Shown here: positions 2,285 to 4,543 of the stretch, piece by piece
How positions within the stretch are numbered: position 1 is the stretch's first letter
Layout of the letters: every line of letters starts with the position of its first letter
From: Fimbriimonadaceae bacterium
GTDB taxonomy: Bacteria > Armatimonadota > Fimbriimonadia > Fimbriimonadales > Fimbriimonadaceae
NCBI GenBank assembly: GCA_039811705.1
Contig: JBDHZD010000006.1
Location: 690 to 64,689, forward strand
Length of the DNA: 64,000 nucleotides
Direction: 5' to 3'
Translations under genes and position numbers: made by a program
The notes under the pieces: model-generated
Seen by the model: only the letters and a program-made list of their open reading frames with translations
Database searches by the model: none
What the model was told of the DNA's origin: nothing

Positions 2285-2893
2285 CTACCTCTTCTTCTCG
2301 ATCAGCGGCTTGTCGTGTTTCTTCTGCGTCGCGACCATGAAGAGGTGATTGTCCCAGGTATCCACCACGCCGTCGAAGTTGAGGTCCGCGTCTGCCGGAA
2401 CACGGAACTTGAGGTCCGTGGCGGTGTACCAAAAATCGAAGTCCTTCTTGCGACCCATCTGGCTCATGATGTACGACTGGTCTTCCTTCGTCAGCTCGCC
2501 GTCGCGGTCCACATCGCCAAACTGAAGCTCCACCTTGGGCAAGACGAGAGCCTTGGCAGGATCGTAGTCGAAGACGACCCGCTTGTCTAGAGCGGTTCCC
2601 CACGACAAGATGACTTGATACCGACCTTTCGGAACTCGCACATCTTGCCCGGCGGTGGTTCGCAACACTTCGAAGGAAACGACGTTGCCTTCTTCCAGGT
2701 TGGTGTGAAAGTCCTCAAGGAGTTCTCCCGTCATCGTGTACGTTCGGAGCCGAATGCTGTCAGGCTCTAACGGTGGCTTCCCGTTGACCTCGAAGTAGAC
2801 GTATCCAGGCAACTTGGAGGGCTGCGCATTCGCTTGAACCTCCGAGTCAACGCCCGTCGCGAAGAGGGCCAATGCAAGGCTAAGGGTGATCAT
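2285..2893 (-). CDS. Secreted protein with C-terminal dockerin-like Ca-binding repeat pair
   Basis: Signal peptide MITLSLALALFATGVDS. Repeats GDVDRDGELTKEDQSYIM and ADLNFDGVVDTWDNHLF. A 2-nt gap to the upstream gene suggests co-transcription. Confidence 0.6.
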   Translation of the reverse strand: MITLSLALALFATGVDSEVQANAQPSKLPGYVYFEVNGKPPLEPDSIRLRTYTMTGELLEDFHTNLEEGNVVSFEVLRTTAGQDVRVPKGRYQVILSWGTALDKRVVFDYDPAKALVLPKVELQFGDVDRDGELTKEDQSYIMSQMGRKKDFDFWYTATDLKFRVPADADLNFDGVVDTWDNHLFMVATQKKHDKPLIEKKR

Positions 2894-2895
2894 GT

Positions 2896-4067
2896 TCAGT
2901 CTCCGTATTCTCCGTCGTTGGCGTCAGCGATGTCGTAGTCGTCGTGATCCACGTCGCCGTCGCGGTCCAAGTCGGCCATATAGGGGGCCACTCCGTTGCT
3001 GTCGGCAAAGTACCAGTCGTTGTCGGCGGAACTCTTGCCGTCAAAAAGGGTGATGATGTCTAGATCGTCCTGGTCCACGTCGTTGTCGTCGTCCACATCG
3101 CCGTACAGAAGAGTGAAACCGACGCCCGTCACGCCTGCCGTCGTGTACGCCACGTCCACACGCTTTCGCAGCGAGCCACGAGCTTTCAGATACACGCGAT
3201 AAGTCGCGTTGCTCAGATTGGACATGTCTACGTCCACGTTGCCGCTTCCATCCACACCCGTCGCATAGAGCAGTTGCGTGACGCCACCCGAGTTCGCCAC
3301 CTCGACATGAATCTCCTCGTTGTTCGCACCGTTGACTGTGCCGGCAATGTACTTCGTGTCAATGATTGGCGTGTTGAGCGTCCATTCCTGAGTCGCATCG
3401 GACGACGCAGTGGCCACCACCGAGTTGCCTCCCGTCGTTCCCCCGAAAGCTGCGGATGAGAACGCATCGATGGTCAAGAGAGGGACGTCCACAGTGGCTG
3501 TCCATGTGCCGTTGCCCATATCAGACCAAGTTGTTGTCGGCCGTCGTACGTACCCCTTGGCCGTACTCCATCCACCCCCGAGAAGCGGGTTCTCCTCATA
3601 GCCCCCAATGCCCGCCACGCTCGCTAGCTCCTCCAAGGTCATTTCACGGGTCACCTTGGCTATCGCCTGAGCCGAGGCTCCAGTTGCGCTGGTCGAGGCA
3701 ATGGCGACCACTTTGCCACGGCGGGTGTAGTCCAACTTGACTTTGCCTGCCGGTGGCGTCCCAGTGCAAGTCAGTGTGTATCGGATCACGGGCACCAAGC
3801 ACAGAGTCTTGTCGTTGACGATTCCCGTTGTCGCTTTCGACTTCGAAGCGCTGGACGAGACGCTCAAAGTGATTGTGGCACCGGAAACCGAGTGCTGGAA
3901 CTGGGCGGGATAGCCGGATGTGTAGACCGTGCTGTTACGCTTAACGGTGGCTGAAATCAGGCTAGGCGACGAAGCGGACACTTGAGCCCATGCCCCCCCC
4001 CCCCGAAAAATGGCAGGGCAAGAGACGGGATGAATGCCAAGGCTCTTAGCGGATGCACGAATCTCAC
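2896..4067 (-). CDS. Secreted dockerin-like protein, with its signal-peptide exon-like leader out of frame because of a G12 tract (tracked ORF is 2896..3981 only)
   Basis: The body ORF 2896..3981 has no RBS or signal peptide and ends in GDVDDDNDVDQDDLDII / ADLDRDGDVDHDDYDIA. Upstream, AAGGAG-N7-GTG (4067) encodes MRFVHPLRALAFIPSLALPFFGGGG and then runs into G12 (3993..4004). With 13 or 10 G the frames fuse to give ...FFGGGGAWA|QVSASSPS, an AXA signal-peptidase site. Confidence 0.6.
3993..4004 (-). repeat. Homopolymeric tract: C12 on plus strand, G12 on the coding strand
   Basis: Counted directly: 8 C in 3993-4000 plus 4 C in 4001-4004. It is the only long homopolymer I noticed in the window. 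Confidence 0.95.
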
Positions 4068-4081
4068 AATCTTTCTCCTTT

Positions 4082-4106
4082 GCGCATATGCGCTGATCCC
4101 ATTATA
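4082..4106 (-). promoter_or_regulatory. Putative -10 box (TATAAT) and 12-bp perfect palindrome GCGCATATGCGC upstream of the dockerin-like gene
   Basis: The minus strand reads TATAAT (4106..4101), then GGGATCA, GCGCATATGCGC (4093..4082), AAAGGAGAAAGATT and GTG. No convincing -35. Confidence 0.35.
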
Positions 4107-4198
4107 GTCGCGATGTTCCCAAACCGCACGGCGTTTTTCACTTTTTCTGGCACAGGGCCAGACCTTGGCGGCGCGAGAACTCGGTCAACCAGCCCGCG

Positions 4199-4543
4199 CT
4201 ACTTCGGAGTAAAGCTCGTCCCGCACCCGCAACCACGGGCGGCGTTCGGGTTCTCAAACTTGAACCCGCCGCCGATCAGGTTGCCGGTGTAATCCAGCGT
4301 CGAACCCTCAAGGAACCGGGCCGACTTCGGGTCGCAGAGAAACACGATGCCGTCGGCGACGAGGCGCAGGTCGGTGTCGCGAGCCTTGGTTTCCAGGGCC
4401 GTGACGTACTCCAGCCCAGAGCAACCGCCACCCTTGACGCCGAGTCGCACCATGGTGCCGGGGGGCTGCTTCTCCAGCAACCGCTTCATGCGGGCCAGTG
4501 CCGCCTCGGTGAGCGTGATCGGGAAAGCCATGCTACGTCCCAC
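4199..4543 (-). CDS. sufA: A-type Fe-S cluster carrier (HesB/IscA/SufA family)
   Basis: 114 aa with GVKGGGCSGLEY and C-terminal GCGCGTSF, the three conserved Cys of A-type carriers. Confidence 0.9.
   Translation of the reverse strand: MGRSMAFPITLTEAALARMKRLLEKQPPGTMVRLGVKGGGCSGLEYVTALETKARDTDLRLVADGIVFLCDPKSARFLEGSTLDYTGNLIGGGFKFENPNAARGCGCGTSFTPK

Follow-up and report, generated by a model that had tools for sequence, protein, structure and literature searches.

The window analysed here is a stretch of 64,000 nucleotides (nt), positions 690-64689 of contig C6 in a draft genome (G000; 144 contigs, 3.32 Mb, 63% G+C) of an uncultured Armatimonadota bacterium from wastewater. On its minus strand a run of twelve G (hereafter G12, and likewise for other lengths) separates a signal peptide from the body of a dockerin-tailed protein. 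We consider it very probable, judging from the alleles compared, that this tract is a slippage-driven translational on/off (phase-variation) switch. Several usual marks of a contingency locus are observed: a tract of at least about nine bases near the 5' end of a frame, a tract length that varies on the same flanks, in-frame (ON) and out-of-frame (OFF) alleles of an intact and constrained open reading frame (ORF), and a tract that is both kept and over-represented. Switches of this kind are known, whereas the phylum and the habitat are new for them; a literature search found no published link between Armatimonadetes/Armatimonadota and phase variation. Public assemblies alone reveal both switch states on identical backgrounds.

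The tract, its frames and its length in related lineages

The original prediction described a start of the form AAGGAG-N7-GTG, a short frame running into G12 and an early stop, and all of these are read off the minus strand (Table 1). From the GTG at 4067 the frame encodes MRFVHPLRALAFIPSLALPFFGGGG, then HGLKCPLRRLA, and ends at the TGA at 3959..3957. The signal peptide has 21 residues, with a basic n-region and, according to the hydropathy profile, a hydrophobic core at residues 9-21. G12 is the sole homopolymer of at least 8 nt in the window and is followed directly on the minus strand by CATGGGCTCAAGTG... The prediction placed the 361-residue body ORF in the frame given by 13 or 10 G, which proved correct; its GTG at 3981 has no Shine-Dalgarno sequence, and the short OFF ORF terminates 22 nt downstream of that GTG. 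With the tract in frame, the fusion product reads ...FFGGG(G)AWA and then QVSASS. The peptide AWAQVSASS is conserved in lineages A, B and C (defined below) and requires an in-frame tract to be read; cleavage presumably occurs at AWA, which would leave QVSASSPSLISATVK at the N-terminus of the mature ON protein.

Lineages A, B and C were defined from orthologous contigs: A is the window type, B has 82% amino-acid identity to it, and C has 76% nucleotide identity. Tract lengths were compared across public assemblies and Logan contigs, where one contig represents the dominant k-mer path. Lineage A is in frame at 10 or 13 G, and lineages B and C at 11 or 14 G. Among lineage A alleles, G12 occurs in the window and in SRR19427039, G11 in L067 (SRR24881069) and L070 (ERR13927258), and G10 in a sister metagenome-assembled genome (MAG), in L048 and L049, and in L050-L055 with 10 further similar places. 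Lineage B shows G10 (L056), G11 (L059-L061; in frame, 393 residues, MVILRSLRVSALLASLVLPFAGGGAWAQVS..., P0013) and G12 (L057, L058 and L062-L064, the L057 contig being found in 10 samples), while lineage C shows G12 (L065) and G13 (L066). The OFF forms thus include the window, L067, L056 and L057.

The sister MAG (BTVX01000006.1, "MAG: Chthonomonas sp. AMX-MBFR-81") is the nearest relative in the genome collection. It carries G10, is 97.5-98% identical to the window in the 200 nt on each side of the tract, and has a single ORF of 389 residues (MRFVHPLRALAFIPSLALPFFGGGAWAQVSASS...), so that the fusion foreseen in the original prediction exists as a natural G10 allele of lineage A. This ON allele of 389 residues is found in Logan contigs of at least 9 runs (17 contigs with P0008 and 4 with P0001); the corresponding protein cluster at 90% identity unites the 389-residue members on these 4 + 17 contigs with the 361-residue ORF of the window. 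A scan for the conserved-flank pattern matched the sister MAG alone among the genome-collection contigs and gave 0 matches among metagenome contigs of JGI.

The comparison of closely related alleles is the most telling. L050 (G10) and L067 (G11) of lineage A have 100% identity over flanks of 617 + 1697 nt; in lineage B the same identity is observed for L056 (G10) against L059 (G11) over 454 + 1709 nt and for L059 (G11) against L062 (G12) over 374 + 1222 nt. Because the flanks are identical, tract length is the sole difference within these lineage A and B pairs. The flanks of the G12 and G13 alleles of lineage C are about 99.6% identical. In the Logan runs with the locus, a second and related lineage is present alongside, which allows a comparison within runs: lineages A and B have G11 and G10, respectively, in SRR24881069, G10 and G12 in SRR26349698, and G10 and G11 in SRR19361205. 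The two lineages deviate both ways within runs, and a per-run bias therefore does not account for the lengths. The phase-variation reading had predicted that tract length would differ among related assemblies, and it does so in all three lineages; the outcome named beforehand as contrary to it, a uniform length with unrelated orthologue starts, is absent, for the orthologues share the start and the signal peptide and their tract lengths vary.

We propose the following mechanism. Slipped-strand mispairing during replication would add or remove G's, and we infer from the sequences that such change is reversible and occurs at a high rate within a population. At 10 or 13 G, the GTG led by the Shine-Dalgarno sequence, a Sec-type signal peptide, a Gly linker and the AWA site would be fused to a mature protein of 365 residues, which would be exported and probably stay attached to the cell surface. 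At 11 or 12 G (12 in G000), translation would end 11 codons past the tract, and the body would have neither a start nor an export signal; any product of reinitiation on the OFF body would have no signal peptide and so would not be exported. The OFF state may also lower expression of the co-transcribed dockerin-tailed gene of 202 residues, and slippage of RNA polymerase may leave it slightly leaky. With about 17 poly-G sites in the genome, subpopulations could differ in the exported proteins that they display. The tract-bearing bacteria come from nitrogen-removal reactors, and selection there would presumably be exerted by phage, by predators or through attachment to the biofilm.

Table 1. Positions of the features of the locus (window coordinates) and of the poly-G tracts of the genome (contig, with position where given)
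Feature	Position	Strand	Remark
Candidate -10 hexamer TATAAT of the operon	4101..4106	minus	Read directly; tentative
Perfect 12-nt palindrome GCGCATATGCGC, between -10 and Shine-Dalgarno	4082..4093	minus	From sequence
Shine-Dalgarno AAGGAG, 7 nt 5' of the GTG start (4067..4065)	4075..4080	minus	Identical in all orthologous contigs
Short ORF, OFF state as assembled: GTG, signal peptide MRFVHPLRALAFIPSLALPFF, 4 Gly codons, 11 out-of-frame codons, TGA	3957..4067	minus	
G12 homopolymer	3993..4004 (plus-strand C12)	minus	ORF codons 22-25; frame restored by 10 or 13 G, not by 11 or 12
Predicted signal-peptidase I site, codons GCA-TGG-GCT (A-W-A), before Q-V-S-A-S-S	3985..3993	minus	Frame translation
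Body ORF, 361 codons from GTG 3981	2896..3981	minus	Mature frame begins with GCA at 3993
Beta-jelly-roll	~3981..3358	minus	
X-module-like beta-sandwich	~3351..3115	minus	
Dockerin-like Ca-loop pair	~3108..2899	minus	
Second gene, 202 residues: signal peptide, beta-sandwich, dockerin-like tail	2285..2893	minus	Own GGAG; ATG 2 nt past the body stop
Tracts in leaderless promoter spacers (6)	C2:17943, C16:3420, C17:25793, C25:6870, C43:18369, C56:9645		
Other upstream or intergenic tracts (5)	C1, C10, C119, C47, C23		
Tracts in signal-peptide coding regions (3)	C6 (main locus), C28, C44		
Tracts in other contexts (3)	C14, C36, C104		

Alternative readings of the locus

The body ORF of the window is intact and differs from the ON allele of genome G001 by 11 synonymous and 5 non-synonymous substitutions, with a ratio of non-synonymous to synonymous rates (dN/dS) of 0.15; against lineages B and C the ratio is 0.08-0.09 at a synonymous divergence (dS) of about 1.3. 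Judged by these ratios, the body is under purifying selection, the out-of-frame lineages included. The G run occupies the same codon positions across this divergence despite the divergence of the signal peptide (MRFVHPLRALAFIPSLALPFF against MVILRSLRVSALLASLVLPFA), and we attribute its position to selection because a neutral G run at third codon positions would not survive saturated divergence. These values bear on the possibility that the locus is an ordinary pseudogene, i.e., a gene being lost after a one-off frameshift at a mutation-prone site, with no adaptive or reversible switching. Some relatives are indeed in plain decay. The L070 lineage (about 95% identical to the window; G11) has a premature stop at residue 203; in L070-L073 about 120-144 nt of the dockerin-repeat region are rearranged, which leaves an annotated fragment of 85 residues; and the same broken body is found in GCA_019912465.1 (JAIOIG010000098.1, L071), where the contig ends before the tract, L070 being the only contig of the four to reach it. 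The C10 paralogue (G8) carries an in-frame TAG, and OFF alleles exceed ON alleles in lineages B and C. The window body, however, is free of further lesions, most of its differences from the ON allele are synonymous, the OFF and ON alleles of lineage B are otherwise identical, neutral decay does not allow a tract conserved over such a distance, and the same architecture recurs on unrelated genes; a pseudogene is thus very unlikely.

Another possibility is that the true length is G10 or G13, the gene is intact, and the length differences are homopolymer noise from sequencing or assembly. Every platform is prone to errors at homopolymers of at least 10 G, reference genomes have contained wrongly called G tracts, and stutter of the polymerase chain reaction or of Illumina sequencing at G10-13 can shift the apparent length (PMC9187656). 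Poly-G at two contig ends (C35 and C87) also hints at chemistry or assembly trouble with long G runs. All 3 tract-bearing members of the paralogue family are OFF in G000 (G12, G9 and G8), and each is repaired by one additional G, which initially suggested a systematic under-call. An under-call as the main explanation is countered by several observations. G12 was obtained in two independent assemblies, the Logan contig SRR19427039_39242 being 100% identical to the window allele over 2403 nt, and this weakens the simple assembly error that the original prediction had listed as an alternative; in addition, one and the same G12 contig, L057 of lineage B, recurs in 10 samples. The window differs from the ON allele by 2 nt rather than 1, and a G11 intermediate is seen on the G10 background. 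In the same assembly the C28 tract (G10) is in frame, unlike its orthologue in G001; lineages found together in a single run deviate in opposite directions; and frames are not broken unusually often at G/C runs of 6-7. We therefore regard an error as very unlikely. The probability of programmed recoding, in which RNA polymerase slippage on the G run or ribosomal frameshifting on GGG would ensure a fixed low expression at any DNA length, appears to us to be very small. Long homopolymers do permit transcript realignment, which is established for A/T runs (dnaX of Thermus, insertion sequence elements), out-of-frame alleles are common in nature, and the G is always on the sense strand; but in-frame DNA alleles are also common and form the majority in lineage A, the required shifts differ in sign (+1 for G12 of lineage A, -1 or +2 for G12 of lineages B and C, +1 for G10 of lineage B), and the tract length of 10-13 is unlike the fixed length of true recoding sites.

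A phase-variation switch remains the reading that we prefer, and several further points weigh against it, as do the decayed relatives, the stutter and the uniformly OFF paralogues given above. Lineage A is heavily dominated by G10, with 3 deviating observations. A contig reports the dominant k-mer path only, and switching is read from differences between samples. MutS1 and MutL are present, hence slippage is not boosted by missing mismatch repair. If the switch is confirmed, bacteria of environmental biofilms, and not host-adapted ones alone, would generally rely on stochastic variation of their surface, and "frameshifted" genes of secreted proteins in MAGs should not be dismissed as pseudogenes or errors.

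The protein under the proposed switch and known counterparts

Searches of Pfam (to E <= 1), NCBIfam and PDB with the protein sequence gave no match to a family. A word-based homologue search with the N-terminal domain found two orthologue clusters only; an exhaustive profile search gave 651 proteins at E <= 0.001, of which about 60 representatives could be aligned along their whole length and most others have just the C-terminal ~140 residues in common. The AlphaFold2 model from a 43-sequence alignment has a mean predicted local distance difference test (pLDDT) score of 86.9 and a predicted template modelling (pTM) score of 0.76, with residues 1-23 disordered, as for a signal peptide; the single-sequence model has pLDDT 35. 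In the first model, residues 239-389 match the type II X-module-dockerin structures 4wi0_B, 5k39_B and 2b59_B (Foldseek, target template modelling score 0.65-0.69, root-mean-square deviation 3.5 A), and the jelly-roll of residues 29-236 has weak, non-specific fold matches (lectins, CBM11, Bd1399, viral capsid jelly-rolls). The protein had been called dockerin-like from its sequence. This holds for the fold and for the family, 20 of the 43 members of which match Dockerin_1 (PF00404, best E 1.7e-10); the protein taken alone stays below the Pfam threshold. If the locus is a switch, dockerin-tailed exported proteins are thereby flagged as a part of the cell under fluctuating selection in a poorly known phylum.

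According to the model, the C-terminal ~150 residues would share with the X-module-dockerin of Clostridium thermocellum CipA/ScaA the beta-sandwich and the two-loop Ca-binding dockerin fold; the sequence identity is 14-18%, and there is no cellulosome context here. Cohesin (PF00963) had no match at E <= 0.01 in G000 or 12 relatives, and a classical cohesin-dockerin system is not supported.

The second gene, of 202 residues, has a weak Dockerin_1/EF-hand match and is present in all orthologous contigs; small dockerin-type ORFs likewise adjoin the paralogues that have the same two-gene layout. Upstream of the operon, a consensus scan called no full promoter at 4101..4106, and there is no canonical -35 element upstream of TATAAT. 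In lineage B the palindrome GCGCATATGCGC takes the form GCGCA-TAG-TGCGC, in lineage C that of GCGCA-TCG-TGCGC. It may serve as an operator or form a hairpin in the 5' untranslated region, and would then add a layer of regulation to the switch.

On/off switches made of homopolymers are classical in Neisseria, Campylobacter, Haemophilus and Treponema, to which Bifidobacterium was added more recently; the known systems nearest to our locus are those of Neisseria and Bifidobacterium. A poly-G tract in the signal-peptide-coding region of pilC of Neisseria gonorrhoeae/meningitidis was reportedly described by Jonsson et al. in 1991. Under the PhasomeIt definition of phase-variable genes, pilC is listed as G(9-20), genic (PMC5953494). 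The two loci are alike in a G run of 9-20 in the 5' region encoding the export signal and in frameshift-based ON/OFF control of a surface-related protein, and the two organisms in a multi-locus "phasome" that includes promoter tracts and in the presence of mismatch repair. They differ in that the proteins are unrelated, the pilC host is a human pathogen whereas ours is a free-living or bioreactor member of Armatimonadota, and switching was measured in colonies there and is deduced from between-sample differences here. As to repair, MutS_I together with MutL_C was found in all 21 genomes tested (G000 and 20 relatives), which rules out a Campylobacter-like lack of mismatch repair. By analogy, the lineage resembles Neisseria and Haemophilus, which are repair-proficient with slippage dependent on tract length, rather than Campylobacter.

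The sortase-dependent pilus genes bbr_0113 and bbr_1889 of Bifidobacterium breve UCC2003 contain an intragenic G10/G11 replication-slippage switch (PMC9187656). This case also concerns a non-pathogen of high G+C, with a G10-G12 tract that splits the first gene of a small operon into two annotated ORFs; in both cases an in-frame length fuses the ORFs, a polar downstream effect is proposed, and equivalent tracts occur across the genus. There, heterogeneity was established by error-corrected sequencing and tied to a pilus phenotype, whereas here it is deduced from a comparison of assemblies; our tract marks the precise junction of signal peptide and mature protein, and what it would control is a dockerin-tailed protein instead of a pilin.

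Promoter-spacer homopolymers that vary in phase are known for porA/opc of N. meningitidis, fim of Bordetella and the poly-G of tpr in Treponema pallidum; the class as such is covered by PMC5953494. The likeness to this class concerns sister loci of our tract only, in which, as read from sequence, G9-G14 between TTGACA and the -10 element appears to set the spacer; the main locus differs in being translational. We know of no description of a leaderless mRNA combined with a spacer tract among the classical examples.

Poly-G tracts elsewhere in the genome and the order

The 3.3-Mb genome contains 3184, 538, 55 and 10 G/C runs of lengths 5, 6, 7 and 8, then 4, 7, 2, 2 and 1 of lengths 9, 10, 11, 12 and 14, plus runs of 22, 23 and 31. 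Extrapolating the decay between lengths 5 and 7 (about 7.6-fold per added base), about 1.1 runs of at least 9 and 0.14 of at least 10 are expected; 19 and 15, respectively, are observed. Only 4 of 16 runs of at least 9 lie deep in open frames, as against 85% of random positions (p = 1e-7). The share for runs of 6-7 is 83-84%; these runs behave as random sites, and there is therefore no general homopolymer frameshifting in the assembly. In each of the 13 tracts linked to a gene, it is the sense strand that carries the G's (p = 2e-4).

Six tracts lie in promoters of the form TTGAC[AT]-N5-9-G9-14-hexamer-N5-10-ATG with a spacer of about 16-20 nt. In 5 of the 6 the ATG is 5-7 nt past the -10 hexamer, for which reason we take the mRNAs to be leaderless. 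All six precede proteins with N-terminal hydrophobic signals, and they look like poly-G-tuned promoters for exported proteins. Orthologous promoters are present in G001, and at least one similar promoter in G011. Orthologous tracts of G000 and G001 are often kept despite flanks that are 84-92% identical (11/11 G at C56, 10/10 at C43), and differences in length are found at C16 (10 against 9), at C28 (10 against 8 with a CA indel) and at the main locus (12 against 10).

The design of the main locus is repeated, in either state, on unrelated signal peptides, two of which belong to G000. C44 encodes MDHRGTRRATSIFRNRFWTLVATLGVLCGGG and then a stop; its G9 is OFF and G10 would be needed to read ...GGGVAHADITVTPLG, the ON product occurring elsewhere as P0019 (414 residues). 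C28 is ON in G000 (G10) and OFF in G001 through the length change and indel just mentioned. C37, a G001 paralogue with G10, is ON. The closed genome G040 belongs to a different family of the order; two paralogues there carry G10 and G15, respectively, right after MKLIAIFVTLLVGGFIIGAFGFGSPT and are OFF in each case. The single-contig genome G011 has G10-G16 tracts upstream of signal-peptide genes, L077 being clearly of the leaderless form TTGACA-Gn-TAACTT. Poly-G 10-mers are found in 51 of the 61 relatives; because ten genomes of the order have none, we consider poly-G a trait of the lineage that does not simply follow from base composition.

The two-gene operon with its promoter (~4250..2300) is 98-100% identical to L002 of G001, and the adjacent upstream suf genes are 85-88% identical. 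Other tract loci compared between G000 and G001 are also close (C1, 99.5%; C16, 98%; C28, 97%) relative to the typical paired flanks at 84-92%. These values suggest a recent exchange of tract-bearing cassettes between species.

With somewhat less than even confidence, we put forward the idea of an order-wide phasome in free-living Fimbriimonadales: dozens of sense-strand poly-G tracts would gate a dockerin-tailed exported proteome, either via leaderless TTGACA-Gn-TAAnAA spacers or at the junctions of signal peptide and mature protein, and the cassettes would be swapped between co-occurring species. To our knowledge, contingency-locus bet-hedging has been described almost only for pathogens and commensals; if the idea is true, it would extend to engineered and environmental biofilms, where it would probably be driven by phage or predator pressure.

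Some minor observations concern individual tracts. L005, a family member from another genus (G019:C35, ~183760-183770), has a sense-strand C11 right after a lipoprotein signal (LLASGCSFLAPPP...), with poly-Pro in place of poly-Gly; the related P0029 has PPP there. The tracts at C1:33562, C10:31298 and C119:5896 lie upstream of small Cys-rich exported proteins of the CCQPYNACCQECT and CCYEVDACCQECT types; the motif TGAATTTnnnATGAA, just upstream of the tract, is common to these three loci and may be the site of a common regulator. Contig C87 ends with G22 + CA and C35 starts with G31 + CAAGAGG; they are probably neighbours separated by a poly-G of at least 22-31 G at which the assembly broke, or, alternatively, both ends are artefacts of two-colour chemistry. 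Finally, C36:1-1883 is an array of clustered regularly interspaced short palindromic repeats (CRISPR) with 24 repeats (CTTGCAATCGCCCCCACCCCGAAAGGGGATTGAAAC) and one extra spacer-length stretch followed by C23/G23, a tract which, judged from the ATTGAAAC repeat end, would lie at the trailer end of the array.

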